A stretch of 64,000 nt of DNA from the NCBI GenBank assembly GCA_030608565.1, contig JAUWDY010000005.1:5359-69358 (forward strand), in the 5' to 3' direction. The notes under the pieces were generated by a model that was given only the letters and a program-made list of their open reading frames with translations, ran no database searches and had not been told where the DNA came from. This DNA comes from Candidatus Bathyarchaeota archaeon (lineage in GTDB: Archaea; Thermoproteota; Bathyarchaeia; Bathyarchaeales; Bathyarchaeaceae). The translations under genes and the position numbers were made by a program. Position 1 is the stretch's first letter; the number at the start of each line of letters is the position of its first letter. Of the stretch, positions 38,087 to 60,560 are shown piece by piece.

Positions 38087-40765
38087 TTGAAGATGAAACG
38101 TGTTGCTCAAACCGTTTATTTTATGACTATGATTCTAATTTTGTCAGCGCCGGCGATTCTATTTTCTTGTGCTGACGAAACGCGCAGTGTTAATGTGGTT
38201 AGCCTCCAAAACGCCGAATCTTCAGGAGATTTTGTTGAGCCTGTTATTTATCACGTATACTCTATAGATCGAGATTTCAACAACATTCAGGATCGTCTCG
38301 AAAGCTTGATTTTGCAAACGTTGCAGGTCAACGAGAGCGCGGTTTTACCTGTTGTAGTTACTCTGTATGGTTCTGTTTCGTCTCAAGACTTGGAATATTT
38401 CAGAGAGCTAGGTGGGAATATACAGCATGTCTACGATCATGTGACATATGGTTTTGCAGGAGAAATTCCTGCGTCTAAGATATCATTGTTTGCAAGTCTG
38501 GAAAGAGAGAAACTTTCTATGATTGAATATGACTTGCCTCTTCGCTATCATTTGGACGTCAGTACTCCTCTCATTCGGGCAAGGCCTACTGTGTGGAACA
38601 CGTATGGCTACATGGGATCTCCAAACCAATCTATCGCCATCCTTGACACAGGCATTGATGACTCCCATCTCGACCTTGGGCCATATCAAAACCTAAATTT
38701 TTCAAGCAAGATGGTGGGCTGGTATGATGCAACCTCTGATAATTCGTTGACGCCGGAAGACTATGGAGAACATGGAACCCACGTTGCAGGCATAGCAGCT
38801 GGAACGGGAACGACAAACAATCTGCAAGGATCGGGTAATATACAAACCACATTCACGTATGTTTTGCCCCCGGTTGGATATGGCTACATGGACATTATTG
38901 ATGTAATGAACCCAGGAGTTATCGAATTAAATGTTAGGTGGGATGGAACCAACGACGTGTTGCTAAGGTTGTATGATCCTTCTGGAGAATGGGTTACACA
39001 AACTAGTGGAAAAAGCCAGCCGTTAATCTTAACTTACAACACGACTGACACGCCTTATCCGACAGGACGTTACGAAGTTCTTGTGGGCAACTTGGCGGGT
39101 CCATCGGGCACTCCGTTTTCATGCATAGAAACCTATCCTTATGAAGGACGTAGCGACGGCTATAACCTCTTCAGCGGAGTTGCACCCAACTCCAAGCTTG
39201 TGGGTGTTAAAGTGTTTGATAACACAGGTTCTGGAACATTTGCAACTCTTTTGGATGCAATGGATTGGATAATTGAAAATCGCCAAACTTATCACATAGT
39301 TGTTGCCAGCATGAGCTTATCACTAGAAGATGGCGCAACTGATACCACGCTTGACCTGAAAGCAGACACTATGGTGCAGAATGGAATTGTAACTGTAGTT
39401 TCAGCGGGCAACGATTATCCAGATTATACTGTAGGCTCGCCTGGAACTGCTGCTTATGTCATAACAGTTGCGGCTACTAATGATCTAAACGGCGTTACCT
39501 CGTATAGTAGTAATGGAGACCAAGCAAAAAATGAGTATGGATTAGTTAAGCCTGATGTTGCTGCTCCGGGTGGAACTTTTGATCCAGCCTATGGAAATCG
39601 TATTATTTCAGCTGATAGTAATGATGTAGACGGCGCGTACAGTGGTTTTTCGGATCAGAATGTAGATGATTATCAACAGATGGGGGGCACATCTATGTCT
39701 GCACCTCATGTTGCTGGGTTGGCTGCCTTGGTTGTTCAAGCCTTGGGCAGTTGGAACTGGACTTTTGAAGAGGCGTTGAAGGTGAAAATGTTGATTGGTA
39801 TGACTGCTTCTGAAACGCAGAAAGGAGAGGGTTCAAACGTGCCTCTGTTAAATCGTGGAGAAAAGGATAGCAAGGAAGGGTATGGGCGGGTTAACGCGGA
39901 TGCTGTTATAGAAGCTGCAACTATGAACTATAGCGTAGGGGAGGAAGTTAATGGCACGTTTGGTTCTGGATCTTCAGATAAGAAAGTTTGGGCTCGACAA
40001 GTTCATTTAACAACAGGCTCCAAATATGTGTTCAATTTGACTGTTCCAGTTGACGCAGATTATGACCTTTTTGTATATAATGGTACGGCAGACAGTTACG
40101 GGCAACCAGTTATCTTGACCAAAAGTGTTAATGCTTCTTTGGGTGCAGACGAGATTATGCAGTTTGCTCCTAACGCTTCAGGCACCTATTATATAGTGGC
40201 TAAGTGGGTGAGCGGTGAAGGTACATTCACCTTGTCCAGTGCCACATCTATTTTGCGTGATGTAGCTGTGACCGATGTAACGGTGTCGGATACGGCGGTG
40301 TATGTCGGGGAAACCGTGAACATTACCGTGGCTGTACAGAATTATGGAGGTGTCCCTGAAAGTTTTGATGTAACGGTTTTTTACAATAGTACTGTTATTG
40401 AAGTGAGAAATGTAAGTGATCTTGCGGTTGGAGCATCTGAAGTTTTAACCTTTAGCTGGGGCACTTCTGGAGTGCAGCCTTGTACCAAAAACTACACAAT
40501 AAAAGCTGAAGCTAGTGTCGTGTCTGACGAGTCTAATATATCTAATAATGTCCTGATCGACGGAGATGTTAAAGTTAAGATGCAAGGAGATGTGAACGGT
40601 GATGGCATTGTGAACGTTTTAGATTTGTCTGTTGTTTCTATGTCCTATGGGAGTTTTGAAGGAGAACCAGACTATAATCTAGATGCGGACTTGAACAAGG
40701 ACGGAGTCGTGGACATGCGCGACCTAGCAAAAGTGGCCATGAACCTTGGAAACACTTGCTCATGA
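38087..40765 (+). CDS. Secreted subtilisin-family (S8) serine protease with an inserted beta-sandwich, PPC-like domain, CARDB-like domain and C-terminal dockerin
   Basis: The catalytic triad contexts are AILDTGIDDSH (Asp), GEHGTHVAGIAAG (His) and GGTSMSAPHVAGLAA (Ser). A ~100-aa insert follows the His. A DYDLFVYNG-type pre-peptidase C-terminal-like domain is present, then a CARDB-like RDVAVTDVTVSD...NITVAVQNYG. The dockerin is GDVNGDGIVNVLDL...DADLNKDGVVDMRDL (nt 40580-40762). Confidence 0.9.
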   Translation: MKMKRVAQTVYFMTMILILSAPAILFSCADETRSVNVVSLQNAESSGDFVEPVIYHVYSIDRDFNNIQDRLESLILQTLQVNESAVLPVVVTLYGSVSSQDLEYFRELGGNIQHVYDHVTYGFAGEIPASKISLFASLEREKLSMIEYDLPLRYHLDVSTPLIRARPTVWNTYGYMGSPNQSIAILDTGIDDSHLDLGPYQNLNFSSKMVGWYDATSDNSLTPEDYGEHGTHVAGIAAGTGTTNNLQGSGNIQTTFTYVLPPVGYGYMDIIDVMNPGVIELNVRWDGTNDVLLRLYDPSGEWVTQTSGKSQPLILTYNTTDTPYPTGRYEVLVGNLAGPSGTPFSCIETYPYEGRSDGYNLFSGVAPNSKLVGVKVFDNTGSGTFATLLDAMDWIIENRQTYHIVVASMSLSLEDGATDTTLDLKADTMVQNGIVTVVSAGNDYPDYTVGSPGTAAYVITVAATNDLNGVTSYSSNGDQAKNEYGLVKPDVAAPGGTFDPAYGNRIISADSNDVDGAYSGFSDQNVDDYQQMGGTSMSAPHVAGLAALVVQALGSWNWTFEEALKVKMLIGMTASETQKGEGSNVPLLNRGEKDSKEGYGRVNADAVIEAATMNYSVGEEVNGTFGSGSSDKKVWARQVHLTTGSKYVFNLTVPVDADYDLFVYNGTADSYGQPVILTKSVNASLGADEIMQFAPNASGTYYIVAKWVSGEGTFTLSSATSILRDVAVTDVTVSDTAVYVGETVNITVAVQNYGGVPESFDVTVFYNSTVIEVRNVSDLAVGASEVLTFSWGTSGVQPCTKNYTIKAEASVVSDESNISNNVLIDGDVKVKMQGDVNGDGIVNVLDLSVVSMSYGSFEGEPDYNLDADLNKDGVVDMRDLAKVAMNLGNTCS
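40662..40759 (+). repeat. ~98-nt near-identical dockerin 3' cassette, copy 2 (partner 36649..36746)
   Basis: See copy 1. Confidence 0.8.
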
Positions 40766-40818: not shown

Positions 40819-43800
40819 TTATAGGTTATCCAAAACATGTTGAGCATCTGTGAGGAGGATGTCTGCGGCTTCAATGGTTATATGCTTGCCAGATTGGGCT
40901 TTTAGCTGATTAATGAATGCTTTGAGCATTTTCTTTGCCACTTCGGGTTTTCCTTGTTCAATCTTCTTTTGGGCAGCGTACAGCTTGTCTATTAGACCTG
41001 ACGCAACGTCCTCTTCATCAATATAGCCTAAGTCATAGAACTTTTCTACAAGGCCGATCAAGCTGTCGATTGTCGCTATTACGTTGAATTCGACTGTTTC
41101 AGTGGCGGAGTTTCCAGCGTTATCTACAGCAGTAACGGTCAATGTGTGTAGTCCCAAGCTGAAGGTGAAAAGCTCAATTAAGTCACCGTTCTCAACAGTT
41201 ATTCCGTCTAACGTTGCGGAGATTGATGCTACTCCAGATTCTGTGTCAACAGCGTTGAAATCAAGAGTTATACTCTCTGAATGTAGGTAATCTCCGGCTA
41301 CTGGTTCGTTGATTGTGATTGTTGGTGGTGTCACATCTACTCCTGAAATCTCGGTGAAAACAGCCGTTAACGAGTGATCGTCATTCATGGTAACTGTGTA
41401 GGGGTCGGCTGAACCAACATCAACACCATCTAGAAGCCAGTGGTCCAGCAGCCAACCACCATCAGGAATAGCATCAACAGGAACCCCTAAACCCTCATCA
41501 TACAGGTGAACGCCAGGAGCAGGAACAGTAGTACCAGAACCAACAACGCTGATGGTCAAAGTATATTGGGTTGGAGGAATCTCAGTAAAGACGGCAGTTA
41601 ACGTGTGATCGTCATTCATAGTGACCGTGTAGGGATCAGCGGAACCGACGTCAACACCATCAAGAAGCCAGTGATTCAGCATCCAACCACTATCGGGAAT
41701 AGCGTCGACGGGAACCCCTGAGCCCTCATCATGTTGGTAGGTGCCAGGGGTGGGAACAGTAGTACCCGAACCAACAACACTAATGGTTAGAGTGTACTGG
41801 GTTGGAGGAAGCTCACCAAAGACAGCTGTCAACGTATGATCAGTATTCATGGTAACCGTATAGGGATCAACCGAGCCAACATCAACACCATCGAGCAACC
41901 AGTGATCTAGCATCCAGCCACTGTCGGGAATTGCATCGACTGGAACTTCTGAGCCTTCATCATAGAGGTAAGTGCCGGGAGAAGGCTCGGTAGTACCTGC
42001 CCCAACAACATCGATAGTCAATTCATACTGAGTTGGAGGAAGTTCGACGAAAACAGCGGTTAGGGTGTGATTGGCATCCATGGTAACCGTGTAAGGGTCA
42101 GCAGAACCAACATCAACACCATCCAGAAGCCAATGACTCAACTCCCAACCACTATCAGGAATAGCGTCAACTGGAACCTCCGAGCCCTCATCATAGAGGT
42201 GAACGCCAGGAGCAGGAACAGTAGTACCAGAACCCACAACGTCGATAGTTAAGGTATATTGTGTCGGCGGAGGCGTGGAGAAGTATCCGCCTGTCGTGTC
42301 GTGAGATATCGGATCTCCACTAGAATCTAGGAGAATGGAATCGTATAAGGGTAGGTCGGATTCTCCGGTGTCTAATACGTTGAAGGTTACGGTGAAAAGG
42401 TTTCCGCTACCGCTCACTCCAGGATACTTGCCTAAGGTGACACAGGCAACATAAGCATAATCGTCGTCGATGATGTATGTGAAGTATGTTCCCACAGGGG
42501 ACGTAGTTTGATCTTTTATGAAAGGGCCTTCTTCGACATCAAATGGTCCCAGAACAGTCTTGTTGAAGCCCAGTTTAACCTCATACGCGAAGAGATCCTC
42601 AACGTTTTGGATATTTATGTTGAGGGTGAAGGAATCACCAGGACCAGCACTGACCACAGAAGGATCAACATACATCAGAACCGCTGAAACCTCAGTAAAG
42701 ACAGCGGTTAACGAGTGATCGTCATCCATAGTAACCGTGTAAGGATCCGCTGAACCAACATCAACACCATCAAGCAACCAGTAATCCAACATGTAACCAC
42801 TGTCGGGAATAGCATCAACAGGAACCCCTAAACCCTCATCATGCAGGTAGCTGCCGGGAGAAGGATCAGTAGTGCCTGACCCGGTAACACTGATAGTTAG
42901 AGTGTACTGAGTTGGAGGAATCTCAACAAAATAGGCAGTTAAAGCATGATCAGCATTCATAGTAACCGTATAAGGATCACCAGAACCAACATCAACGCCA
43001 TCCAGAAGCCAATGACTCAACTCCCAACCACTATCGGGAATAGCATCAACAGGAACCCCTAAACCCTCATCATACAGATGGGTGCCAGGAGCAGGATCGG
43101 TGGTTCCGGAGCCAACAACCCCAATAGTTAGTTCATACTGGGTTGGAGGAATCTCAGTAAACACTGCAGTCAAAGTGTGATTGTCATCCATGGTGACTGT
43201 ATAGGGATCAGCGGAACCAACATTAACACCATCCAGAAGCCAATGGTTCAACTCCCAACCACTATCAGGAATAGTGGCAACAGGAACCTCCGAGCCTGCA
43301 TCATACTGGTGGGTGCCAAGAGAAGGATTAGTAGTGCCTGATCCAACAACCTCAATCGTCAAAGTATACTCAGTTGGCATCTCAACGAAGACAGCTGTTA
43401 AAGTGCGATTATCATTCATGATGACCGTGTATGGGTCAGCAGAACCAACATCAACACCGTCAAGAAGCCAATGACTCAACTCCCAACCACTATCAGGAAT
43501 GGAGGCAACCTCAACTTCTGTCCCTGCGTCAAAGGTGTAAGTGTCTGGGGATGGAACAGTGGTTCCAGAGCCGACAACGCTGAGGGTTAGAGTGTATTGG
43601 ATTGGAGGAATCACAACAAAATAGGCGGTTAACGTGTGATCAGCATTCATGGTAACCGTGTACGGATCAGCAGAACCAACATTGACGCCATCAAGCAACC
43701 AGTAATCCAACATGTAACCACTATCAGGAATGGCATCAACAGGAACCAGCGTACCCTCATCATACAGGTGAACGCCAGGAGCAGGAACAGTAGTACCAGA

Positions 43801-44874
43801 ACCAACAACGCCAATCGTGAGCTCATACTGAACTATTGTCTCAATAAAGACGGCGGTTAAAGTGTGATCATCATCCATAGTAACTGTATAAGGGTCAGCC
43901 GAGCCAACGTTAACACCATCCAGAAGCCAATGACTCAACTCCCAACCACCATCAGGAATAGCATCAACAGGAACCCCTAAACCCTCATCATACAAGTGAG
44001 TGCCGGGAGCAGGATCGGTAGTACCAGAACCAACAACGCCGATAGTTAAAGTGTACTGGGTTCCACCGATGTTGCTGAAGAATCCGCTTTCCTTGATTAG
44101 CTCTCCTTCCGCATCTCCCTTAGTTTCTCCTATGCCGTTTATGATGTATGTGAATGACCAGTCAATGTCCAAAGTTGTCTCCGCTTCAGCTTGTACATGG
44201 AATGTGAATGTGGATAGCCAACCGTTGCCTTGGGCACCGGGTGCGGGTCCACTGCTTGTTGTACCAGCCATGATGTCTCCCCAATCCTGATCTATGAGTG
44301 CTGTTGGCGTGAGGTTAGGCTGGGGATAAGCCCCCCCATTCGCAGCCACAGTATAGGTGTTCACAAGGTTGTCCTTCATAGTTAGCTGGGTACCTAAAAC
44401 AGAAGCAACCTGGTTCTCCTCGCTATTACTGTCATCTTCAATCAAAACTGCGTAACCTGCCGTAAACTTTGATCCATCAGCAACGTTCACTATTTTCTGG
44501 CCTGAAGCAGCATCCGCAGTTAGAAGACCCCATGGTCCTACTCTAGGAGCAACTAGGAAGTCACCCCATATAACCGTGGCATCTATGTCCAACACAGAGG
44601 GCTCCCACTTCATGTAAACCTGCCAGGCATAAACATCAGTGCCTTCATTAAAGTCGGCGTCAGAAATCATTATGTCAACTGTGAAGCTGTTGCCTGGCGT
44701 CAAGCCTGAATCAATAACGCTTGGAGGGTCCACATATATGGTTGGGAGGACGGCAGCTTGTGCCAAGTTTGTGTGGGGCAAGGGGCTGCTGGCAAATATA
44801 TTGATGAAAACGAATGTAAGGACTAGAAAGAGTAGGGGCCATTTTAGGAGACGAAGTTTCAATTTTGTTACCAC
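40819..44874 (-). CDS. 1351-aa scaffoldin-like secreted protein: insert-bearing cohesin-like module, 6 repeats, second cohesin, 4 repeats, Ig-like domain, helical C-terminal domain
   Basis: It has a signal peptide. Residues 41-267 form cohesin-like module 1, which carries a ~100-aa insert. Residues 273-729 and 871-1176 hold ten ~78-aa repeats (QYTLTI.VVGSGTT.P.PG...YDEG..VPVDAIPDSGW.L.HWLLDGV.VGSADPYTVTM...H.LTAVF), resembling InlB-B/Listeria-Bacteroides-type repeats. Residues 731-866 form cohesin 2 (EGPFIKDQTTSP subtype). The C-terminal helical part (KMLKAFINQLKAQSGKHITIEAADILL) resembles FIMAH-type domains. There is no dockerin and no TM tail. Confidence 0.8.
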   Translation of the reverse strand: MVTKLKLRLLKWPLLFLVLTFVFINIFASSPLPHTNLAQAAVLPTIYVDPPSVIDSGLTPGNSFTVDIMISDADFNEGTDVYAWQVYMKWEPSVLDIDATVIWGDFLVAPRVGPWGLLTADAASGQKIVNVADGSKFTAGYAVLIEDDSNSEENQVASVLGTQLTMKDNLVNTYTVAANGGAYPQPNLTPTALIDQDWGDIMAGTTSSGPAPGAQGNGWLSTFTFHVQAEAETTLDIDWSFTYIINGIGETKGDAEGELIKESGFFSNIGGTQYTLTIGVVGSGTTDPAPGTHLYDEGLGVPVDAIPDGGWELSHWLLDGVNVGSADPYTVTMDDDHTLTAVFIETIVQYELTIGVVGSGTTVPAPGVHLYDEGTLVPVDAIPDSGYMLDYWLLDGVNVGSADPYTVTMNADHTLTAYFVVIPPIQYTLTLSVVGSGTTVPSPDTYTFDAGTEVEVASIPDSGWELSHWLLDGVDVGSADPYTVIMNDNRTLTAVFVEMPTEYTLTIEVVGSGTTNPSLGTHQYDAGSEVPVATIPDSGWELNHWLLDGVNVGSADPYTVTMDDNHTLTAVFTEIPPTQYELTIGVVGSGTTDPAPGTHLYDEGLGVPVDAIPDSGWELSHWLLDGVDVGSGDPYTVTMNADHALTAYFVEIPPTQYTLTISVTGSGTTDPSPGSYLHDEGLGVPVDAIPDSGYMLDYWLLDGVDVGSADPYTVTMDDDHSLTAVFTEVSAVLMYVDPSVVSAGPGDSFTLNINIQNVEDLFAYEVKLGFNKTVLGPFDVEEGPFIKDQTTSPVGTYFTYIIDDDYAYVACVTLGKYPGVSGSGNLFTVTFNVLDTGESDLPLYDSILLDSSGDPISHDTTGGYFSTPPPTQYTLTIDVVGSGTTVPAPGVHLYDEGSEVPVDAIPDSGWELSHWLLDGVDVGSADPYTVTMDANHTLTAVFVELPPTQYELTIDVVGAGTTEPSPGTYLYDEGSEVPVDAIPDSGWMLDHWLLDGVDVGSVDPYTVTMNTDHTLTAVFGELPPTQYTLTISVVGSGTTVPTPGTYQHDEGSGVPVDAIPDSGWMLNHWLLDGVDVGSADPYTVTMNDDHTLTAVFTEIPPTQYTLTISVVGSGTTVPAPGVHLYDEGLGVPVDAIPDGGWLLDHWLLDGVDVGSADPYTVTMNDDHSLTAVFTEISGVDVTPPTITINEPVAGDYLHSESITLDFNAVDTESGVASISATLDGITVENGDLIELFTFSLGLHTLTVTAVDNAGNSATETVEFNVIATIDSLIGLVEKFYDLGYIDEEDVASGLIDKLYAAQKKIEQGKPEVAKKMLKAFINQLKAQSGKHITIEAADILLTDAQHVLDNL
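41347..42264 (-). repeat. Four in-frame tandem coding repeats (~231-234 nt each) in the scaffoldin gene
   Basis: These are protein repeats 7-10 (aa 871-1176), the same family as 42688..44058. Confidence 0.85.
42688..44058 (-). repeat. Six in-frame tandem coding repeats (~231-234 nt each) in the scaffoldin gene
   Basis: These are protein repeats 1-6 (aa 273-729). Recurrent nucleotide strings such as ccatccagaagccaatgactcaactcccaaccactatc are visible. Confidence 0.85.
44084..44640 (-). repeat. ~555-bp dispersed direct repeat, copy 1 (insert-bearing cohesin-like module), roughly 90% identical by eye to 46412..46968
   Basis: The two copies align with a constant offset of 2328 nt. For example, cccccccattcgcagccacagtataggtgttcacaaggt and agaagcaacctggttctcctcgctattactgtcatcttcaatcaaaactgcgtaacctgcc occur in both. 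Confidence 0.8.
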
Positions 44875-44948: not shown

Positions 44949-46091
44949 CTATCTCGCAAACGCTAGCTTCGCAGGGTACTTCGGTTGTTTTCGTTTGTGT
45001 TTGCTCCACCAGATGTAGATGATGACTCCTATTAGAGCGATTTCTAAGGCAGCTCCAAAGGGAAACTCTGGTACAGCGCTGATGGTTACTGAGCCGTCAG
45101 TGGTGGTGTGCTCCATTCTATTGGCTAATCGTTTGTTGGTGAAGTCGTATCCGACAAGTTTTGTATCTGTGAGGTTTAGGCCTGTTGTTCCTGAAGTTCC
45201 ATCTACAGTGAAAGTGATTGTGGCCAAGGTTCCGCTGCCTGATGCTCCTGCGGTGTCTCCGGTGAGAGTGCATGTGACCCAATATCGTCCGTGGGTTGCA
45301 TTGTAGGTGTCGGTGTTGTTTAATACGCTGAAGAAAGTTGTGCCCGCGGATGACAGGAAGGTTCCTTGAGTAACGCTGCCATTGGTTAAGATGTTGTTTT
45401 TGTAGTAGAGTTTGAACTCCCAGCCGTAGAGGTCATCTACGCTGGCGATGTCTATGTCAACAGTAAATGGTGAAGAAGGATCAGATAAACTGGATGGACT
45501 CACACTCATTGTGCCCTTCTGATAAGCGGTTACGGTCACCCAAGCCTCGTACTCGTAGAAGTAGGCGGCGCCTCCACCGCCAGTACCACCTTCAACACGT
45601 AACCTAATGTCTGTTATGTCTGTCCAGCTCCACACTCCATCATTAGGTTCACTTTGGCTAAGCCACACCCTCTCTGGGCTCGTGTAGTCATAGTCTACAC
45701 CAGACCCGATCCAATCCTGCAATACAACCGGGCCGGCAGTTCCTACGTAATAAACAATCCTGTAATTCTCCCCTGTGCCACCCTTTCCAGATTTATAATT
45801 CATCTTGAAGTCGACGAAGGCTATACCCTTTGTTGTAGGTGCTCCGCTTATGCTAAATGTTTTTACTTCTTCATATTCGCTTTTGTCATATGCTATCCGC
45901 GCATAAGTAGCGGTACTGCCATCGTAGGCATCTGCTGGATCATCAACGCCAGCATCTGCAACATGAGCCGTTGGACTAGAATCATATGTAGCCATTGCTG
46001 GGCTTGCGTAAGCTACGTTAAGGAATAGAAGCGTTAATGTTCCATAAAGAACAAGTAAAAAGATTAAACATTTTTTGATCTTATTCAACAC
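44949..46091 (-). CDS. Surface-anchoring cohesin protein: unknown N-terminal domain + cohesin + PEF-CTERM-like sorting tail
   Basis: It has a signal peptide. Residues 193-338 are a cohesin (VDDLYGWEFKLYYKNNIL ... ASGSGTLATITFTV ... TDGSVTIS). The tail is AVPEFPFGAALEIALIGVIIYIWWSKHKRKQPK. Confidence 0.75.
   Translation of the reverse strand: MLNKIKKCLIFLLVLYGTLTLLFLNVAYASPAMATYDSSPTAHVADAGVDDPADAYDGSTATYARIAYDKSEYEEVKTFSISGAPTTKGIAFVDFKMNYKSGKGGTGENYRIVYYVGTAGPVVLQDWIGSGVDYDYTSPERVWLSQSEPNDGVWSWTDITDIRLRVEGGTGGGGAAYFYEYEAWVTVTAYQKGTMSVSPSSLSDPSSPFTVDIDIASVDDLYGWEFKLYYKNNILTNGSVTQGTFLSSAGTTFFSVLNNTDTYNATHGRYWVTCTLTGDTAGASGSGTLATITFTVDGTSGTTGLNLTDTKLVGYDFTNKRLANRMEHTTTDGSVTISAVPEFPFGAALEIALIGVIIYIWWSKHKRKQPKYPAKLAFAR
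44952..45077 (-). other. PEF/PEFG-CTERM-like tripartite sorting signal (motif, TM helix, basic cluster), putative archaeosortase substrate site
   Basis: The signal reads VPEFPFG + AALEIALIGVIIYIWW + SKHKRK. Related tails occur at 49633..49743 (LPEAPFG...KMKKSK) and 52710..52808 (SEPFP...YMRRKRT). Confidence 0.55.
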
Positions 46092-46225: not shown

Positions 46226-47164
46226 CTAGTAGTTTGCGTAGACTCCGTATTGAAGGGACACCAACGTTAAGTCGATGACGTTAACATAGCCATCGTTGTT
46301 TATGTCTTCTGGGCCTTCATATCCGGGTCCAGACTCGACTTTTAGCGCTACAGAAGACAGGTCGAATATGTCAACAGCGCCATCTGCATTCAAGTCTTCA
46401 TCCTTCGGTAGAAGGAAGTAGCCGCTTTCCTTGATTAGCTCTCCTTCCTCATCTCCCTTAGTTTCTCCTAAGCCATTTATGAGGTATGTGAATGACCAGT
46501 CAATGTTCAAAACTGTCTCCCCTTCAGCTTGTACATAAAATGTGAATGTGGATAGCCAACCGTTGCCTTGAGCACCGGGTGCCGGTCCATGACTTGTTGT
46601 ACCAGCCATGATGTCACCCCAACCATGATCTACGAGCGCCGTTGGCGTGAGGTCAGGCTGAGGATAAGCCCCCCCATTCGCAGCCACAGTATAGGTGTTC
46701 ACAAGGTCGTTCAACATAGTTAGCTGGGTACCTAAAACAGAAGCAACCTGGTTCTCCTCGCTATTACTGTCATCTTCAATCAAAACTGCGTAACCTGCCG
46801 CGAACTTTGATCCATCAGCAACGCTCACTATTTTTTGGCCTGAAGCAGCATTCGCAGTTAGAAGACCCCACGGCCCCACTCTAGGAGCATCCAGAAAGTC
46901 ACCCCATATAACCGTGTCATCTATGTCCAACACCAGAGGATCCCACTTCATGTAAACCTGCCAAGCAAAAACATCAGTGTGTAAATCGTAATCCGCATCA
47001 TAAACATAGATATCGACGTAGAAGATCCCACCCGTTCTTCCAGTATAGTACGTAGGTTCAACTTTGAAGGATGGTGTGGTGTCTGTTGAACCGAAATTTA
47101 TGAAGACTAGACTTAAGAGTAGTGAAAGAAGTAATGATATCCATAGGTTTTTAGTTACTTTCAT
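46226..47164 (-). CDS. Secreted insert-bearing cohesin-like module + divergent dockerin (adaptor-type)
   Basis: It has a signal peptide. Its module is near-identical to scaffoldin module 1 (DVFAWQVYMKWDPLVLDID...GNGWLSTFTFYVQAEGETVLNIDWSF). The dockerin is DLNADGAVDIFDL...EDINNDGYVNVIDL (nt 46229-46405). Confidence 0.75.
   Translation of the reverse strand: MKVTKNLWISLLLSLLLSLVFINFGSTDTTPSFKVEPTYYTGRTGGIFYVDIYVYDADYDLHTDVFAWQVYMKWDPLVLDIDDTVIWGDFLDAPRVGPWGLLTANAASGQKIVSVADGSKFAAGYAVLIEDDSNSEENQVASVLGTQLTMLNDLVNTYTVAANGGAYPQPDLTPTALVDHGWGDIMAGTTSHGPAPGAQGNGWLSTFTFYVQAEGETVLNIDWSFTYLINGLGETKGDEEGELIKESGYFLLPKDEDLNADGAVDIFDLSSVALKVESGPGYEGPEDINNDGYVNVIDLTLVSLQYGVYANY
46412..46968 (-). repeat. 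~555-bp dispersed direct repeat, copy 2 (see 44084..44640)
   Basis: The alignment is the same as described for copy 1. Confidence 0.8.
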
Positions 47165-47240: not shown

Positions 47241-48137
47241 TTAAGGTACAACGGCGAAGCTGAAGGTTTTCACCTTCTCTCCTGGCGACCAATAGGTTCC
47301 ACTCCAACTATACCAAGCTTTAGCGCTCACATAGTATTTCCCAGCATCCGCAGGTACCAATGGCCCGAAATCCGCTGACAACTCAACTATTACAAGAGGT
47401 GTAACGACAACCTCATCCGTGCTCACAGTGGTCAACAACGTATCGTCGCGCATAATGTCGAACACTACCTTAACGTAGAGGTCAAGGTGGTCAAGGTTTT
47501 TCACCTTAGCATTAAGCGTCTGAATCGCATCTTCGTCTTTTGATACAACAAAGTGGTGGTGTTCTGGCCATGCGCTTCGTCTTACTACGTCAGCACGTGC
47601 AGTTGTATAGAAGTATCCGCCCGCTGTGTCGTGAGACATCGTTGTTCCAGTAGAATCTAGGAGAATAGTATCGTATAGAGGTAGGTCGCACGCTCCAGCA
47701 TCCATGACATTAAAGGTTATACTGACCAGGACTCCGCTGCCGCTAATTCCAGGATATTTCCCTAAGGTGACGCAGGCAACATAAATGTAGTCGCCGCTGA
47801 CGATATACGTGAAGTATGTTCCCATGGGAGATGTGGTCTGATCCTTTATGAAAGGTCCCTCGTCGACACTAACTGGCGTCAGAAGATTGTCATTAAAGCC
47901 TAGTTTAACTTCGTAGGAGAACAGGTCGACAACATCTTGAATGTTTACGGTGATTGTGAAGGAGTCGCCTGGATTCGCAATGTTTTCTTCAAGGTCAACG
48001 GAAAGCAGAGGCAAAGTGACGGGTGCAAATGCTGTGCTCACACTGGATAGAACCATAAGAGACAACAGGAGTAAAGGAAGCCATCTAAGATTTTCCTTTC
48101 TCAAACTCTCACCTTCTCGTGTTGATAATTTACACAC
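47241..48137 (-). CDS. Secreted cohesin (EGPFIKDQTTSP subtype) + C-terminal Ig-like domain
   Basis: The probable start is the TTG at 48104, after GAAGGTGAG. It has a signal peptide. Residues 43-178 are a cohesin (nt 47604-48011). The C-terminal ~115-aa domain ends KTFSFAVVP. There is no dockerin and no TM tail. Confidence 0.7.
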   Translation of the reverse strand: MCKLSTREGESLRKENLRWLPLLLLSLMVLSSVSTAFAPVTLPLLSVDLEENIANPGDSFTITVNIQDVVDLFSYEVKLGFNDNLLTPVSVDEGPFIKDQTTSPMGTYFTYIVSGDYIYVACVTLGKYPGISGSGVLVSITFNVMDAGACDLPLYDTILLDSTGTTMSHDTAGGYFYTTARADVVRRSAWPEHHHFVVSKDEDAIQTLNAKVKNLDHLDLYVKVVFDIMRDDTLLTTVSTDEVVVTPLVIVELSADFGPLVPADAGKYYVSAKAWYSWSGTYWSPGEKVKTFSFAVVP

Positions 48138-49629: not shown

Positions 49630-52578
49630 CTAGACTGGTTTGGATTTCTTCATTTTCACCAAGTAAACTGCCATTACTGCGATTACTATTGCCATTCCGA
49701 TAGTCGTGTAGTGAAAGATGCCGAAAGGCGCCTCCGGCAATTCTTGTATGAGAACTCCAATGGTTCGCGAATTGTCCACACTATAGGTTTCTCCAGGTAA
49801 AGGTTCGGCTAATGCTTTGACTGTGTAAATGCCGGCCGCTATATTTCGTGTATCCCACGTAAGGCTTATTGTCTCATTTACGCCTGTAGCTAAAGGCGCG
49901 GTGAGGGCTCGTGTAAGTCGAGTGTTGTTATAGTAAATTGTCACATTAAACGATTCTATTGCAGTGCCCTTGTTCAAGGCGATCACATTTATTGTTAGCA
50001 ATTCTCCTTTGGTTGCTTTGATTTTTGATACTTCAATGTCGAGAATAGCTATGTCTTGGATCGCCACGTTCACGCTCAGTTCAGGACTTTCAGCTGAAAG
50101 AGTTATTGAATCGCCTTTCCAAGAGGCTTTGATTTGGTAGATGCCAGATTCTGTTGGCATCCAATCAAAGGAGTATTGACCGTTTTGACTTGTTGAGACA
50201 TTTGCAAGAGACATCCAAGCGGTCTCCTCAACACGTGTATATTCAATGGCCACAATCACGCTAGCACGAGCAGGTGAAATGGACCCGCTGATAGTTGTGT
50301 TGAAGCCAAGGGGAACGGTTGTAGGCGAAGTGGATATGGCAATTGTGCTAGACGATTTTGGCACTATTACAGTCTCTGTTTTCGTATGGTCTAAGCCGTC
50401 GTCGTCAACTACCTTCAATTTCACAGCGTAGGTGCCAGGCATACTGTAAGCATGGGTTGCAGTCACGCCCGTGGCGTTTGCCTCATCACCAAAATCCCAT
50501 ATGTAATTCATGATCTCTCCTTCAGGGTCTCCTGGTGCATAGCTGGCTGACGCGTCAAAAGTGACTACTTCGCCCATGTTTGGCTCACTGGGCGAGAAAG
50601 TGAAAAAAGGTACAGGGAGCAACCGAATCAGAACAGTCAAGTTTTGCACGTTGTTCGTCGTATTAGCTTCGTCAACAACAGGGGGTACATATGCAGTTAC
50701 ATTGTATACACCTTCAACAGTGGAGTTCATTGCCCTAAACCAACTGAAGCTCAATGTTGTGGTGGCTCCGGCTGACAGTGTTACCGCAGTCTGATTTGCT
50801 ATAGGTTCGGTTGAATTGGCATAAACAAACACGTCGAAAGTGTCGTCTATATTGCCTTTGTTTTCAATCTCAACTTCTATGGTTGAAATTCTTCCTACAA
50901 CGATGTCGGTTGGACTGACTTCTATATTGGTAATTGCTATATCGTGTACAGGAACTTCGGTGGCGACTATTGGATCGCCAAAAAGTGTGTTGTCGACTGT
51001 GTTTTTCTCTTCGCTGGGACGAAAAACATGAGGTTTGATAAAATCGACTAAGTAGGCGTTTGCCCATATAGCGTAAGATCCTGGTGTAATGTCTCTTGGT
51101 TGAAGAGGGTTGATTCTCACTGGAAGCCAATCAACATAAATTGGCGTTGCGTTGACTCCAACCTGGATGTACCTTATACGAACCCTTGTTTTATTCATCA
51201 GGCTGGGCTCCCATAAGAGGCTGCCAGTTACGTCAACCCAGAAAAATGCATCGGTTACAGATGTGATGTTATAGACGATATCTTCGCTCCAAGTCTTTCC
51301 GTTGTAAACGCTCATGTTTAACTGATCATCTCCGCCTACATCAGTTTTCACTTCTATTCCAACTTCCACTTTGGATACGCAAGTCCACCCGATGGTGTCA
51401 AATTCGTAGCCTCTAAATTCTTGATATGTGTTATTGGTGCTGGTGTAGGTATAGAGATCATCTGAAGTGGAAGCGTTGAGCGGATAAGTCCACGCTCCAA
51501 CACCTTCTATAGAAGGACTCAACATTGTTTGATTGATATACGTATTCCAAAGGAACGTAAGGGTTTCATTGTCTCCGGGACTTAAACCGTCCACAAATTC
51601 AGTGTTTATCGGTATACTGTTGTAGAAGGCGGTCACGTTGAATGTGTCGTGGTGACTACCATTGTTCAGAACGGTCACATCGATTCTTGCTATTTCACCC
51701 GTGTGAACTTCGTCTGGGGTTTCTATCTCCAAGATGGCTATGTCATGGAATTTAACGTCCACCTCAAGCGAGACGGTGTTGTTTTCGCCATCGTCGTCAG
51801 TGATTGAAAGCGTCACATTGTATGAGGTAAGAAGAGTAGTAGATACGTTGTAAGCATGAGTTGTGATCACGTCCGTTCCATTTGTTCCATCATCAAAATC
51901 CCATACGTAACTGACTATGCTACCTCCATCAGGGTCGTAGCTGGCAGAGGCGTCAAAAGATATAGTTTCACCAACTATTGGACGCCCATAGGTATCAGGG
52001 GTAAAGGAGAAAGCAGCCACGGGTGCAGTTGTGTGGAAATCTCCGTCAGATGTGCTATGTGAAATTTCAACAACAGAAGAATCCAACAATATTGTGCCAT
52101 AGAGGTGTAGAGTGGATTCTCCTGCGGCTTTTACAGTGAAGGTTACGGTGAAAAGGTTTCCGCTGCCGCCTACTCCAGGATACTTGCCCAAAGTGACGCA
52201 GGCAACATAAACATAATCGTCAGCGATTGTGTATGAAAAGTATGTTCCCATCGGAGACGTAGTTTGATCTTTTATGAAAGGCCCTTCCTCAACATCAGTT
52301 GCTTCCAGAACGTTCTTATCGAATCCTACTCTAGCCTCATACGAGAAGAGATCTGTGACATCGGCGACGCCGATCTCAATGATAAAAGATTCAGTAGGGT
52401 TCGCCACATTGTTCGCAGGATCTACCGCAATTGTTGTGTCAGGAGAAGCTGATGCATGTAATGGAAAGGGTAAAATCACGCCTAGTGCAGCTACAAGTAC
52501 TATTGACAGTAAAAGAAAAGTTATGCTGAACCTTTTGGGATGATGTAACTTACGTAATCTCATAAGCCCTCTCTCCAA
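49630..52578 (-). CDS. 982-aa surface protein: cohesin + PKD + CARDB-like domains + unknown domain + PKD + Ig-like domains + PEF-CTERM-like tail
   Basis: The probable start is the ATG at 52563, after GGAGAGAGGG. The cohesin spans aa 48-183 (nt 52030-52437). PKD motifs are present (FDASASYDPDGGSIVSYVWDFDDGT; FDASASYAPGDPEGEIMNYIWDFGDE). Several CARDB-like modules occur (HDIAILEIE..., HDIAITNIE..., QDIAILDIE...). The tail is LPEAPFGIFHYTTIGMAIVIAVMAVYLVKMKKSKPV. I counted >20 N-x-S/T sequons by eye. Confidence 0.8.
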   Translation of the reverse strand: MERGLMRLRKLHHPKRFSITFLLLSIVLVAALGVILPFPLHASASPDTTIAVDPANNVANPTESFIIEIGVADVTDLFSYEARVGFDKNVLEATDVEEGPFIKDQTTSPMGTYFSYTIADDYVYVACVTLGKYPGVGGSGNLFTVTFTVKAAGESTLHLYGTILLDSSVVEISHSTSDGDFHTTAPVAAFSFTPDTYGRPIVGETISFDASASYDPDGGSIVSYVWDFDDGTNGTDVITTHAYNVSTTLLTSYNVTLSITDDDGENNTVSLEVDVKFHDIAILEIETPDEVHTGEIARIDVTVLNNGSHHDTFNVTAFYNSIPINTEFVDGLSPGDNETLTFLWNTYINQTMLSPSIEGVGAWTYPLNASTSDDLYTYTSTNNTYQEFRGYEFDTIGWTCVSKVEVGIEVKTDVGGDDQLNMSVYNGKTWSEDIVYNITSVTDAFFWVDVTGSLLWEPSLMNKTRVRIRYIQVGVNATPIYVDWLPVRINPLQPRDITPGSYAIWANAYLVDFIKPHVFRPSEEKNTVDNTLFGDPIVATEVPVHDIAITNIEVSPTDIVVGRISTIEVEIENKGNIDDTFDVFVYANSTEPIANQTAVTLSAGATTTLSFSWFRAMNSTVEGVYNVTAYVPPVVDEANTTNNVQNLTVLIRLLPVPFFTFSPSEPNMGEVVTFDASASYAPGDPEGEIMNYIWDFGDEANATGVTATHAYSMPGTYAVKLKVVDDDGLDHTKTETVIVPKSSSTIAISTSPTTVPLGFNTTISGSISPARASVIVAIEYTRVEETAWMSLANVSTSQNGQYSFDWMPTESGIYQIKASWKGDSITLSAESPELSVNVAIQDIAILDIEVSKIKATKGELLTINVIALNKGTAIESFNVTIYYNNTRLTRALTAPLATGVNETISLTWDTRNIAAGIYTVKALAEPLPGETYSVDNSRTIGVLIQELPEAPFGIFHYTTIGMAIVIAVMAVYLVKMKKSKPV

Positions 52579-52706: not shown

Positions 52707-54011
52707 TCAAGTGCGTTTTCTTCTCATGTAAAAGACTACGACGGCTAAGACTATGATTACGCCTATGGCGCCACCGATGACTAGGGTTGTTGGAAATGGT
52801 TCGGAAACCACGTTTACCGTAACAGTTCCGTCTTTGAACTCATTGTCGTCAGTGTCAACTTCGCCTTCGACTGTTGATGCAATAGCCTTTATCTGATAGT
52901 CTCCTTCAGCAACGCCTGTTGTGTCCCAGCTGAAAGTCAATGTTTCTTCGCTTCCAGGGCTCAAACCATCAACTTGCTGAGTGGCTATCGTGTTGGTGCC
53001 ATAGTATGTTGTTACGCCAAAGTCTTCTGATTCAGTGCCATCATTCCGAGCCGTTACATCAATGGAAACGGTTTCCCCAGCGTTAACTACTGCTTTCGAC
53101 ACTACAACGTTAGTTACTGCCACGTCATGAGCATAAGCGATACTCAGTGTTACCTCCTTTGTGCTGAAAAGTTCATACCAAATCCGCGGCATATCAGTAG
53201 TGTTGAATTGAGACTGCACAAGCGCAGACGCTGTGGCATCGTCGATGACAGTTAAAGAGGCAGTGAAAATTCCGCCAGTTGTGTAGGTATGTTCAGTAGT
53301 TGCCGTAGTGACCGAAGCATTTGTTCCATCTCCGAAATCCCAATAGTACTCAGCAATTTCCAATGGTGAGGTGGCACTGCTTGCTGAAGCGTTGAAGGTT
53401 GTCGGCTGATCTATTCCAGGAGGGTCAGGAGAATATGTGAAGTCAGCTACGGGTGGAATTAGAGTGTTGATAAAAAGACCGTTTTGGACAATGAGTTCAA
53501 GATCTTCAAAGTCGGGGGGAGGATTAGGGCTGTTCTGAGCTGTCAGATAAGTCAGATATATCTCTGTACCTGGGAGTGGATCGGTTTCAAACTTCAGGAG
53601 GGATTCTCCCTCAGCCACAACTTCAAACTCTACTGTCGCCAAAACTCCGCTGCCACTTATTCCTTGGTATTCACCGATTGTTGACCAGCCGAAAAGCGCT
53701 GAGGATTCTTCGATGTTCTGAACCCCAAATGTTCCATCAGGTTGCCACGCCAGGAAGTCTCCTTCTGTGACGTTGACAAAATTCAGTACGTCTGAATTGA
53801 AGGTTAGGTTTATCTGCCAAGCGTAGAGAAAATCGGCACCGGAAACAGTCACGTTGACTTTGAAGGATTCATCGACTGTTTTGTACACGATTGCTGGGTC
53901 AAAACTGATTTTTGCTGTAGCAGAAGAAGAGACAGTTTCAAGATTTATTAGAGTTGCTGCAAGAAGAAATGCCGAAAAGACAATTATGAGTAGCTTCTTT
54001 TTAAAGTTCAT
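52707..54011 (-). CDS. Surface protein: cohesin + PKD + CARDB-like domain + C-terminal TM/basic tail
   Basis: It has a signal peptide. The cohesin reads ADFLYAWQINLTFNSDVLNF ... GISGSGVLATVEFEVVAEGES. The PKD motif is FNASASSATSPLEIAEYYWDFGDGT. The CARDB-like module is HDVAVTNVVVSK...DVTARNDG. The tail is SEPFPTTLVIGGAIGVIIVLAVVVFYMRRKRT. Confidence 0.8.
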   Translation of the reverse strand: MNFKKKLLIIVFSAFLLAATLINLETVSSSATAKISFDPAIVYKTVDESFKVNVTVSGADFLYAWQINLTFNSDVLNFVNVTEGDFLAWQPDGTFGVQNIEESSALFGWSTIGEYQGISGSGVLATVEFEVVAEGESLLKFETDPLPGTEIYLTYLTAQNSPNPPPDFEDLELIVQNGLFINTLIPPVADFTYSPDPPGIDQPTTFNASASSATSPLEIAEYYWDFGDGTNASVTTATTEHTYTTGGIFTASLTVIDDATASALVQSQFNTTDMPRIWYELFSTKEVTLSIAYAHDVAVTNVVVSKAVVNAGETVSIDVTARNDGTESEDFGVTTYYGTNTIATQQVDGLSPGSEETLTFSWDTTGVAEGDYQIKAIASTVEGEVDTDDNEFKDGTVTVNVVSEPFPTTLVIGGAIGVIIVLAVVVFYMRRKRT

Positions 54012-55829: not shown

Positions 55830-57224
55830 TTAAGGTACAATCCAGAAGTGCATTGTCTTCTGGGTTGATCCCCAAGAGTTCCATTTGAAGCCTTCGCTAG
55901 TGTATTCGATGGTTGCTGTGAGTTCGTATGTGCCGATGTGGTCTTCGCCTGAAAGCCATGTGACAGGGTCCAACTCAAGCTCCATGCCTGGGTTAACCAC
56001 GAATTCAGGTGGAGTAACAGGCGTTATAGCTGCAAACTCAACCTTCAATCGCACGCTGTCTATCTGCATAACATCAGGTGCGTCACCGTGGTAGTTGTAG
56101 ACGAGCATCTCAATATCGTTGAGGTCTGCTTCATTAGCTAGGTTTGGTTCTTGTTGTAGGACGCTTTCGCCGTCGATCCACCTAGTTCCGTACCAACCCC
56201 AGTCGGTAGTTCCCCAGCTGGATCCCCACCATGCAAACGCGGGCAGACCGTAAAGGTCAATGTCCACGTTCTCGGTGAAGCCATTTGGGAATCGCGAGTA
56301 GGTTTCTACCCATATGTTTGCGATCTCTTTGCCTCCAAGAGTAATATCTTCGAAGCCGAATAGAGATGCCCACTGGGCGTTAGCGTCGCCTTCAATGTAG
56401 TTGCCGTCGGGTTCTCCGAACAGGTTGGTTGGATCACCGTTGAATTCATAGTACCATTCGTTGAACTCGTTAACGTATAGGTATTCGAATGGTAGTGGTT
56501 CTCCAAGGCCACCGCCGGAGTAGGTTTGTCCAGCGTATATTCGGATGGTCCTGCTGTCTTCCAGTCGGGTTATGTCATAGCGTACCCTAACAGTTAGGGG
56601 AATGTCACCTTCGTTTATTACCTTGGCTTGGATTGGGAACACTGTTCCCGCTTTAACCTTGCGACCTTCAGGCATGTTTGCCCTGATCAGCCGTGCGGTT
56701 GGGCCTTGGTAGAAGGCGTCGGAAGTCTTGTGTGGCAGATAGTTGCCCTCTGGGTCCAACATAATGGTGTCCATCAGTGTTACTGGGCTTTCTCCAGATT
56801 CCACGACGAACAACTTGAATGTTGCCAGTATTCCGCTGCCAGATGCACCTACTCTTGGTGGGGTGCTCATCCTCATTATGACAACGGTGAATGTTCCTTC
56901 GAAAGAGTCAGTTGTGTATGTGAAGTAGGTCAGATGTGATCCACCATCATTCATGAAGCTTCCTTCTAGAATGTTGGATGCTGTTAGCACGGACACATAT
57001 GGCTGAACCTTCACAGTGAACTGAACTGCCCAAAGGTTTTCAGCATTGTCTATATTGACGGACATAGCGAATTCGTCGCCAGCGTGACCTTCCAGTTTAT
57101 CTGGCGTAATAGATATGGTGGTTGCGGGCGCTGCAGTCGTTGGGTTGATGCCAACCATCATGACGGTGAGCATCATTGCAATCAAGGATAGCAATAATAT
57201 GTTTTTTCCTCTCACTCTAATCAC
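55830..57224 (-). CDS. Secreted cohesin + uncharacterised ~300-aa C-terminal region
   Basis: It has a signal peptide. The cohesin reads AENLWAVQFTVKVQPYVSVL ... GASGSGILATFKLFVVESGES. The C-terminal region is Trp-rich and ends KTMHFWIVP (compare KTFSFAVVP in 47241..48137). The gene starts 9 nt after the stop of the binding-protein gene. Confidence 0.7.
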   Translation of the reverse strand: MIRVRGKNILLLSLIAMMLTVMMVGINPTTAAPATTISITPDKLEGHAGDEFAMSVNIDNAENLWAVQFTVKVQPYVSVLTASNILEGSFMNDGGSHLTYFTYTTDSFEGTFTVVIMRMSTPPRVGASGSGILATFKLFVVESGESPVTLMDTIMLDPEGNYLPHKTSDAFYQGPTARLIRANMPEGRKVKAGTVFPIQAKVINEGDIPLTVRVRYDITRLEDSRTIRIYAGQTYSGGGLGEPLPFEYLYVNEFNEWYYEFNGDPTNLFGEPDGNYIEGDANAQWASLFGFEDITLGGKEIANIWVETYSRFPNGFTENVDIDLYGLPAFAWWGSSWGTTDWGWYGTRWIDGESVLQQEPNLANEADLNDIEMLVYNYHGDAPDVMQIDSVRLKVEFAAITPVTPPEFVVNPGMELELDPVTWLSGEDHIGTYELTATIEYTSEGFKWNSWGSTQKTMHFWIVP

Positions 57225-60547: not shown

Positions 60548-60560
60548 GGAGAAAGCAAAA

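Follow-up and report, generated by a model that had tools for sequence, protein, structure and literature searches.

A putative secreted scaffoldin-like protein with two divergent cohesins and an Ig-FIMAH tail in a Bathyarchaeia cohesin-dockerin gene cluster

We are concerned here with a single long gene, which we call the scaffold, and with the cluster of cohesin and dockerin genes in which it lies. The DNA is a stretch of 64,000 nucleotides (nt) from a Candidatus Bathyarchaeota archaeon (NCBI GenBank assembly GCA_030608565.1, contig JAUWDY010000005.1, positions 5,359 to 69,358 of the forward strand); we refer to this whole stretch as the window, and its coordinates are used throughout. The open reading frame (ORF) of the scaffold occupies 40819..44874 on the minus strand, begins with a GTG start codon, ends with the stop codon at 40819-40821, and encodes 1351 amino acids (aa). 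The identical protein is present in NCBI (P0001, on an 81.7-kb contig), and with its signal peptide removed the mature protein is acidic and has a mass of about 139 kDa. From its N-terminus to its C-terminus it consists of a signal peptide, an N-terminal cohesin (cohN), six repeats, a second cohesin (coh2), four repeats, an Ig-like domain, and a four-helix FIMAH tail, as follows.

44755..44874, minus strand: signal peptide, aa 1-40, MVTKLKLRLLKWPLLFLVLTFVFINIFASSPLPHTNLAQA followed by A, with putative cleavage
44074..44754, minus strand: cohN, aa 41-267, a jelly-roll interrupted by an inserted domain
44281..44541, minus strand: rider-like barrel inserted in cohN, about aa 112-198
44077..44641, minus strand: tract shared with gene 46226 (at 46415-46979), 91.9% identity over 566 nt (blastn)
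42688..44058, minus strand: first array, six repeats of Flg_new_2/InlB-B type, aa 273-729
42277..42684, minus strand: coh2, aa 731-866, of the EGPFIKDQTTSP type
41347..42261, minus strand: second array, four Flg_new_2 repeats, aa 872-1176
41074..41325, minus strand: Ig/PKD-like beta-sandwich, aa 1184-1267
40822..41070, minus strand: FIMAH four-helix domain, aa 1269-1351, at the C-terminal end

This is the domain order that the first-pass annotation, made from the sequence alone, had proposed, and almost every element of it is now confirmed by Pfam, the N-terminal module being confirmed by profile alignment and predicted fold. The only hydrophobic segment of the protein is aa 5-33, within the signal peptide, and the (A/S)-Q-A motif that stands right before the first cohesin recurs in the proteins P0124, P0125 and P0132 and in the ortholog of contig L085, described below. 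In the scaffold we find no match to the dockerin hidden Markov model (HMM) Dockerin_1 of Pfam, no F-hand motif, no SLH match, no C-terminal transmembrane (TM) segment, and, downstream of the signal peptide, neither a lipobox nor a sorting signal of known type; nor is there a catalytic Pfam domain or a match to a carbohydrate-binding module (CBM). In being a secreted, non-catalytic protein with two cohesins, the scaffold agrees with cellulosomal scaffoldins. A lipoprotein anchor was considered and rejected because the single cysteine of the protein sits inside coh2, and a hidden downstream dockerin was likewise rejected because the convergent protease gene lies only 53 nt beyond the stop codon. 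The earlier claim that the protein lacks both dockerin and membrane anchor is therefore borne out, and its C-terminus is native: eleven orthologous tails end at one and the same position, with the motif ...V(I/L)xNL.

The two cohesins differ greatly from each other. The second of them, coh2, matches the Pfam Cohesin family PF00963 over aa 740-840 (E 1.7e-11, 44.9 bits, cutoff 24.1), has a weak sequence match in the PDB to the Bacteroides cellulosolvens scaffoldin cohesin (2y3n_A, 1tyj_A), and shares 69% identity with the cohesin encoded by the 298-aa gene 47241-48137 and 64% with that of the membrane-anchored gene 49630-52578. For cohN, there is no Pfam match in aa 41-272 at E<=0.01, so that the gathering score of PF00963 is not reached, and its family profile matches no cohesin among PDB sequences. 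When it is compared by hhalign with the profile of the window's cohesins, both halves of the jelly-roll are aligned, with a probability of 99.1% and E 1.2e-17, and the insertion falls at about aa 112-198, after the conserved motif GDF(L). The AlphaFold2 (AF2) model of cohN, whose pLDDT is only 77, retrieves solved cohesins almost exclusively in a Foldseek search of the PDB (5g5d_A at E 2.3e-5, then 3ghp, 5lxv, 4u3s, 2b59, 1ohz and 1anu), with target-normalised TM-scores of about 0.55-0.64. By alignment and modelled fold, therefore, cohN is a true cohesin carrying an inserted beta-barrel of about 85 aa, much as the first-pass annotation had supposed in describing an insert-bearing, cohesin-like N-terminal module. 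The same annotation had spoken of two different cohesin types, and rightly so, since both modules are cohesins and they are mutually very divergent: BLAST aligns only short segments of cohN and coh2, at 36-38% identity. Eleven homologs of cohN were found in a collection of 5.8 billion proteins, nearly all of them about 320 aa long with a dockerin at the end; the cohN-type family as a whole comprises about 11-23 clusters, nearly all members of which consist of this module plus a dockerin. The family profile matches PDB dockerins. Searching the GTDB representative genomes for the N-terminal module yielded no relative.

The domain inserted in cohN deserves separate treatment. Its core motif is LT.DA..GQK.V.V.DG..F..G..V.I.DD...E.N.V.S..GN.LTM..NL.N.YT.AANG, and within the cohN family no other part is so well conserved, as its invariant columns show; the same rider-like domain occurs in gene 46226-47164, at 46649-46876. 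In the Foldseek search it matches the phage K1 lyase and tailspike structures 7w1c, 7w1d and 4y9v over 85-103 columns, with 20-22% identity and a root-mean-square deviation (rmsd) of 2.4-3.3 Å. It also matches the Pfam family K1-lyase_Rider, PF24149, at E 6.7e-4 and 20.4 bits (cutoff 27) over profile positions 5-35 only, and the tail family phrog_1082 at E 3e-5. When the cohN model was searched against viral folds (BFVD), most of the matches had a high rmsd, and little was learned from them. We also searched for the insert family exhaustively with HMMER over 1.84 billion representatives: about 23 clusters match over the full insert-bearing module, many cohesins over its two flanks only, and about 55 of the best 150 matches cover the insert only, at 45-68% identity. 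These insert-only matches are found in LamG/DUF2341 proteins, an SBP_bac_5-dockerin protein, phage tail-tube and prophage-tail proteins, and NosD-type beta-helix proteins. Because they share a clear motif in unrelated proteins, the insert is an autonomous and promiscuous domain of about 70 aa, widespread and without a Pfam model of its own.

In the K1 lyase itself, a capsule lyase of a Klebsiella phage, the rider is a beta-barrel of six strands that interrupts the beta-helix; it contributes to the stability of the trimer and makes contact with the polysaccharide (PMC8822698). The likeness to this rider (PDB 7W1C/7W1D, PF24149) is that in both cases a small beta-barrel is inserted into a loop of a host beta-fold, and that the cohN insert matches it locally in structure, at an rmsd of 2.5-3.3 Å, and weakly by HMM. 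The local fold match speaks for resemblance, not for membership; the score of the insert lies below the Pfam threshold, and its host fold is a cohesin rather than a beta-helix. The cohN insert family is much closer to unannotated domains of archaeal and bacterial surface proteins than to the K1 lyase.

The two insert-bearing cohesins of the window, cohN and that of gene 46226, are 79% identical over 223 aa (BLASTP), and the genes, which lie 1.8 kb apart, share a tract corresponding to nt 234-798 of the scaffold gene and nt 186-750 of gene 46226. Third-codon-position identity along this tract is 0.77-1.0, so that synonymous sites are nearly unchanged, whereas over codons 1-75 (the 5' 225 nt of the two genes) the DNA identity is only about 46%. 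Nearly unchanged synonymous sites beside unrelated 5' ends indicate that recent gene conversion is the probable process keeping the two cohesins alike. Both cohesins carry the insert in the window and both are without it in the contigs L081 and L085, which suggests that the two probably bind the same partner. A protein of 331 aa from a 2066-bp contig in ENA, P0124, has a signal peptide and first cohesin strands almost identical to those that the scaffold gene encodes at 44650-44874, and a dockerin end like that of gene 46226. Either it arose by natural recombination, or the shared tract gave rise to a chimera during assembly.

The repeats begin at aa 273, 349, 426, 502, 579 and 656 in the first array and at aa 872, 949, 1026 and 1103 in the second, a period of 76-77 aa, and are joined by Pro-rich linkers of 4-5 residues (EIPPT and similar). 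PF18998 (Divergent InlB B-repeat) matches ten stretches of the scaffold, with E 1.7e-95 and 313.5 bits in total (Pfam, cutoff 23.6), and each of the ten repeats matches nearly the full profile, positions 1-72 of 73. Tandem Repeats Finder (TRF) reports one array at 42707-44062, with a period of 231 nt, 5.9 copies and 73% matches, and another at 41360-42258, with 3.9 copies and 77% matches. The layout of 6 + 4 repeats given in the first-pass annotation is confirmed by the repeat starts. That annotation had also called the repeats nearly identical and highly similar in nucleotides, and this must be corrected: pairwise identity is 67-88% in protein (mean 79%) and 67-84% in DNA (mean 77%), and the longest exact word common to two repeats is 59 nt. 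Its comparison with the InlB-B and Listeria-Bacteroides repeats survives in one half, for the repeats do belong with the Listeria InlB B-repeat/Flg_new clan (PF09479, PF18998), all ten of them matching PF18998. Unlike the repeats of that clan in Listeria, they flank cohesins in an archaeal protein, and the NCBIfam model of the Listeria/Bacteroides repeat, TIGR02543, has no match in the scaffold at E<=1.

As for the tail, the FIMAH family PF22888 matches aa 1269-1348 with E 5.7e-9 and 36.9 bits (cutoff 24.8), over profile positions 1-80 of 81, and the AF2 model shows four helices; the FIMAH check suggested by the first-pass annotation therefore came out positive. Preceding it, the Ig region (aa 1184-1262) is Glucodextran_B-like below the Pfam cutoff and scores 34.5 bits against a cutoff of 40 with the NCBIfam OmpL47-type barrel; the Ig copy of the L081 ortholog matches Big_7, and in Foldseek the fold matches PKD, Fn3 and Big domains (9kvu, 3pdd, 4u6t). 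In the model of the whole tail, built with 33 aligned homologs (pLDDT 97.8, pTM 0.88), the Ig sandwich of aa 1185-1266 (strands at model residues 9-90) packs against the four helices of aa 1269-1350 (model residues 93-174). The significant matches in a PDB fold search with this model cover the Ig part only. FIMAH is 54-94% identical across about 30 relatives and always stands at the extreme C-terminus.

Most relatives of the tail in the databases are fragments starting in a repeat; for example, P0137 begins 'MDDNHTLTAVF'. In a metagenome scan seeded with a narrow alignment of the tail, a broad one being too diverse, 15 of the 18 contigs that encode the tail start less than 820 nt upstream of it, inside the repeat array, and among these are contigs of 110 kb and 34 kb. 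Since contigs end in the repeat array, and since the L081 scaffold has a gap in a repeat, most database entries of the scaffold family are C-terminal fragments mis-called as small proteins. The warning of the first-pass annotation that this gene is fragile in assembly therefore applies to the family; the present copy is diverged enough to assemble.

Two longer assemblies allow the whole architecture to be compared. On L085, a metagenome contig of 90 kb, there is a complete ortholog of 1333 aa, with a signal peptide, a cohesin of the cohN subtype without insert, beta-repeat modules (only one of them Flg_new_2), a cohesin, PKD/CARDB modules, further repeat modules, Ig and FIMAH; the junction from cohesin to repeat reads GFFSNIGGTQYTLTI in the scaffold and GYFSNIGVSQWTLSV in L085. 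On L081, a scaffold of 26 kb, we find a signal peptide, a cohesin, four Flg_new_2 repeats, two other modules, a cohesin, at least two Flg_new_2 repeats, a gap of 100 Ns at 7890-7989 (inside a Flg_new_2 repeat), Ig and FIMAH. Upstream, both contigs have the same gene order as the window, namely a cohesin-dockerin protein, a cohesin protein with VPEFP motif, TM helix and basic tail, and the scaffoldin, and both contain orthologs of gene 47241-48137. Downstream, the convergent S8 protease with dockerin is found in L083 (91% aa identity), L084 and L085 (74%), of which L083 and L084 share the scaffold's tail as well. Smaller versions exist too: L095 encodes a minimal one, split in two ORFs, with a signal peptide, a cohesin and the Ig-FIMAH tail, and P0110 has a signal peptide, a cohesin, two repeats, an insert-bearing cohesin and FIMAH. 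Across the family, then, the spacers vary freely, and the cohesins and the Ig-FIMAH tail are kept.

It is against this comparison that we must weigh the suspicion that the scaffold is an artefact, that is, a chimera or a gene with a wrong repeat count, generated through the repeats or through the 566-nt tract. A 92%-identical tract does lie 1.8 kb away, the 2-kb contig of P0124 does join a scaffold-type N-terminus to a dockerin end, and the contigs of relatives routinely break in the repeats. Against this, the architecture and the junction from cohN to the first repeat are reproduced in the independent assemblies L085 and L081, the divergence of the repeats leaves no shared word above 59 nt, the window contains no Ns, no interruption of the reading frame occurs in 4 kb, and the flanking genes on either side are in conserved synteny. 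Because orthologs in independent assemblies have the same ends, the same neighbours and the same cohesin-to-repeat junction, we take the gene to be real, conserved and not chimeric, and we regard an artefact as extremely unlikely.

The scaffold is one of about 15 cohesin or dockerin genes in a cluster that spans 35-59 kb of the window plus 1.2-4.4 kb. Its other members are listed below, with the strand where it bears on the argument.

1224: adaptor with cohesin and dockerin
35040: NosD-like beta-helix protein with dockerin
38087..40765, plus strand: S8 subtilase with CARDB and 'type A' dockerin (Pfam), convergent with and downstream of the scaffold; candidate cargo
44949..46091, minus strand: cohesin protein of 380 aa with PEF motif and TM helix (Pfam Cohesin), directly upstream of the scaffold; candidate membrane anchor of the system
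46226..47164, minus strand: insert-bearing cohesin with divergent 'type B' dockerin, 312 aa (BLASTP, dockerin comparison)
47241..48137, minus strand: secreted coh2-type cohesin with C-terminal Ig-like domain, 298 aa (Pfam Cohesin, E 4e-12)
48204 and 54129: BNR (BNR_2) proteins with dockerin
49630-52578 and 52707-54011: membrane-anchored cohesin proteins with C-terminal TM segment
55830-57224: secreted cohesin protein
57234-59372: OppA-like SBP_bac_5 protein with degenerate dockerin, adjoining the OppB/C/D/F ATP-binding cassette (ABC) transporter genes at 59549-63946

Eight of the cluster's proteins bear a dockerin or a dockerin-like sequence (35040, 38087, 48204, 54129, 57234, 1224, 46226, and 2051, the last with a single F-hand), and seven further proteins bear cohesins, three of them with C-terminal TM anchors (44949, 49630, 52707). 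The dockerins fall into two classes: those of 'type A' are 51-78% identical among themselves, with the SBP protein 57234 as a divergent relative at 40-46%, and 'type B' is found only on gene 46226, at 31-35% identity to type A. No protein in this window has a double dockerin; the L085 homolog of gene 46226 carries two. The 781-aa secreted protein of gene 2051-4396 has an unusual half-dockerin, a single F-hand (DINMDGVVDNKD) that is followed by a TM helix and the tail KKRKQPR, and with only one F-hand before its TM helix it was rejected as the anchored dockerin partner of the scaffold.

The cohesin protein directly upstream of the scaffold ends in SAVPEFPFGAALEIALIGVIIYIWWSKHKRKQ, that is, in a PEF motif (VPEFP), a TM helix and the basic tail KHKRK, and the type recurs, with the ending (S/G)(A/V)VPEFP(F/L/M)G, TM helix and basic tail, in the window, at L081 3686-4981 and at L085 5773-6438. 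This C-terminus looks like a PEF-CTERM (archaeosortase) signal, although it is unscored by TIGR03024 (PEF-CTERM), which gives no match on gene 44949-46091 and 13.4 bits (cutoff 23) on gene 52707-54011. Since the L081 counterpart of this PEF cohesin carries an insert of about 230 aa after EGPFL, domain insertion into cohesins seems to be common in this lineage.

Three further observations concern the surroundings. Genes 47241-48137 and 55830-57224 have in common a C-terminal domain of about 115 aa (...WPEHHHF..., with FSFAVVP or HFWIVP as its last residues), which also terminates a NosD-like beta-helix protein at L085 11648-13015. The cohesin-dockerin system may thus possess a third type of C-terminal module. 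At L081 10234-14436 lies a 1400-aa protein with Peptidase_C25 (gingipain-like), CARDB and a dockerin, a second protease class among the candidate cargo. Beside the cluster, at about 5100-31700, there is a large glycan-biosynthesis cluster with GT1, GT2 and GT4 glycosyltransferases, two DegT aminotransferases, several epimerases/dehydratases, FemAB-like acyltransferases, a polysaccharide deacetylase, and two large multi-TM proteins without Pfam match. As to the host lineage, the OppD protein encoded in the window shares 85%, 80% and 80% identity with its counterparts in three Candidatus Bathyarchaeota metagenome-assembled genomes, with other Bathyarchaeia next best, and several relatives of the repeat protein carry the name Bathyarchaeia. 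The archaeal origin, the conserved neighbourhood, the nature of the cohN insert and the gene conversion with gene 46226 all go beyond the first-pass annotation.

Taken together, these features lead us to the reading that we prefer, with a probability of roughly 0.55: the scaffold would be a secreted, non-catalytic, scaffoldin-like adaptor of a non-cellulosomal cohesin-dockerin surface system in a Bathyarchaeia archaeon. Its two cohesins are expected to take up dockerins of different types, and coh2 most likely binds the abundant 'type A' dockerins of the S8 protease and of the BNR, NosD-like and OppA-like proteins. The strings of six and four repeats would serve as spacers that hold the two cohesins apart, and the complex as a whole would keep extracellular hydrolases and peptide-binding proteins gathered close to the cell. 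Because the Ig-FIMAH tail sits where other proteins of the cluster carry a dockerin or an anchor, and because it is kept in every ortholog, we infer that it is the best candidate for the module by which the scaffold attaches or oligomerises. The nearby cargo, namely a subtilase, BNR and beta-helix proteins and a peptide-binding protein beside the Opp transporter, together with the C25 peptidase-dockerin protein of L081, suggests the scavenging of extracellular protein and polymers. The system is not a cellulosome, since no CBM and no glycoside hydrolase is found in the 64-kb window, the dockerin proteins there being the S8 protease, BNR_2, NosD/beta-helix and SBP_bac_5 proteins.

Several points weigh against this reading. 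The cohesin-dockerin pairings are guesses from sequence classes. By classical logic, the tethering of a cohesin-only protein needs a partner that is anchored or has two dockerins, and no such double partner is encoded in the window. The exact repeat number, 6 + 4, is that of the assembly, and it takes reads to verify it. As for FIMAH, a functionally uncharacterised domain, PDB sequence and profile searches returned no relative, a literature search for FIMAH/PF22888 returned only papers on fimA/fimH or nothing, and a stand-alone FIMAH protein (P0164) occurs in an unrelated bacterial metal-resistance region.

Alternatively, the scaffold might be released and assemble dockerin-tagged enzymes into soluble complexes away from the cell. 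Such an arrangement would resemble that of ScaE (Cthe_0736) of Clostridium thermocellum, a cell-free scaffoldin that consists of seven similar type II cohesins, with no dockerin or anchor and with neither repeat spacers nor FIMAH. The scaffold is like ScaE in being cohesin-only, secreted and without dockerin or anchor, and unlike it in its repeat spacers and FIMAH tail. Release would fit what follows the signal peptide, where there is neither a TM segment nor a lipobox, neither a dockerin nor a known sorting signal, and it would fit the orthologs, which likewise end in Ig-FIMAH with nothing beyond. A link to the surface is suggested, however, by the strict conservation of this tail and by the strict adjacency of the gene for a PEF/TM-anchored cohesin in the window, in L081 and in L085; furthermore, the release of enzymes would be costly in an energy-poor sediment, which we assume to be the habitat. 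We therefore consider a cell-free scaffoldin unlikely, though it is the main rival to the surface adaptor that we prefer.

The repeats, the Ig domain and the rider-like barrel also admit the thought that the protein is a surface adhesin, in which these parts bind polysaccharide, detritus or partner cells and the cohesin folds, acting as structural or ligand-binding domains, bind no dockerin at all. InlB-B/Flg_new repeats and Ig domains are indeed typical of adhesins, and the rider-like domain, besides being the most conserved part of the cohN family, is found in phage tail and beta-helix proteins. But eight dockerin-bearing genes lie in the same cluster, coh2 is above the Pfam gathering threshold and is a close paralog of a cohesin in a membrane-anchored protein, and an adhesin without cell attachment would hold the cell to nothing. 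Thus, we judge an adhesin to be decidedly improbable, and return to the surface adaptor.

The boldest version of that reading goes further than we would. In it, the Ig-FIMAH tail, as a new, non-dockerin attachment module, would be the ligand of the insert-bearing cohN. The adaptor encoded by gene 46226, whose cohesin is the same and is kept 92% identical in DNA by gene conversion, would dock the scaffold on a membrane-anchored base, and scaffolds could join head to tail into a polymer, a 'proteolysome' beside the Opp transporter on which dockerin-tagged proteases and peptide-binding proteins are displayed. We think this very improbable as it stands, and mention it for what it would imply.

It is instructive to compare the system with those already known. 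Genomes of anaerobic methanotrophic archaea (ANME) encode scaffoldin-like multi-cohesin proteins, which have a dockerin plus up to five cohesins, as well as dockerin-tagged OppA/NikA binding proteins (Chadwick et al. 2022, PMC9012536). The locus described here is like them in being an archaeal, non-cellulosomal cohesin-dockerin network in which an SBP_bac_5-dockerin protein adjoins Opp ABC genes (PMC9012536). The scaffold is unlike them in lacking a dockerin, in coming from another phylum (Bathyarchaeia), and in its repeat spacers, cohesin insert and FIMAH tail. With the bacterial cellulosomal scaffoldins (such as CipA/ScaA of C. thermocellum and those of the sca gene clusters of Acetivibrio and Ruminococcus) it has in common that it is secreted and non-catalytic, that it has more than one cohesin, that its cohesins have the cohesin jelly-roll (5g5d, 2b59, 1ohz, 1anu), and that its gene is clustered with those for anchoring cohesin proteins and dockerin-tagged enzymes. 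Unlike them, it is archaeal, has only two cohesins, which are of very different types, and lacks CBM, X-dockerin and SLH; where they have Thr/Pro linkers or X modules, the scaffold has InlB-B repeats; its C-terminus is Ig-FIMAH; and where their cargo consists of glycoside hydrolases, the candidate cargo here consists of a protease, BNR and beta-helix proteins and a solute-binding protein.

To our knowledge, the understanding of cohesin-dockerin assemblies is almost confined to bacterial cellulosomes; what exists for archaea is a few binding tests in Archaeoglobus and the genome surveys of ANME. A literature search found no paper describing cohesin-dockerin systems in Bathyarchaeia, which are among the most abundant archaeal groups in sediments and to which extracellular protein scavenging has been attributed. 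The locus is a conserved, syntenic cohesin-dockerin cassette in this group, whose cargo points to the acquisition of protein and peptides and not to the breakdown of cellulose. As a practical matter, genes of the scaffold family are usually truncated in short-read assemblies, and users of such assemblies should be warned accordingly. The locus shows that a cohesin fold can host a whole inserted domain, and that this domain is a widespread module, so far unannotated, which phage tail proteins have as well. The scaffold itself ends, in place of a dockerin or an anchor, in an uncharacterised but conserved Ig-FIMAH module; and if the boldest version set out above were true, a filamentous 'proteolysome' would provide a mechanism for the extracellular protein scavenging of these archaea.

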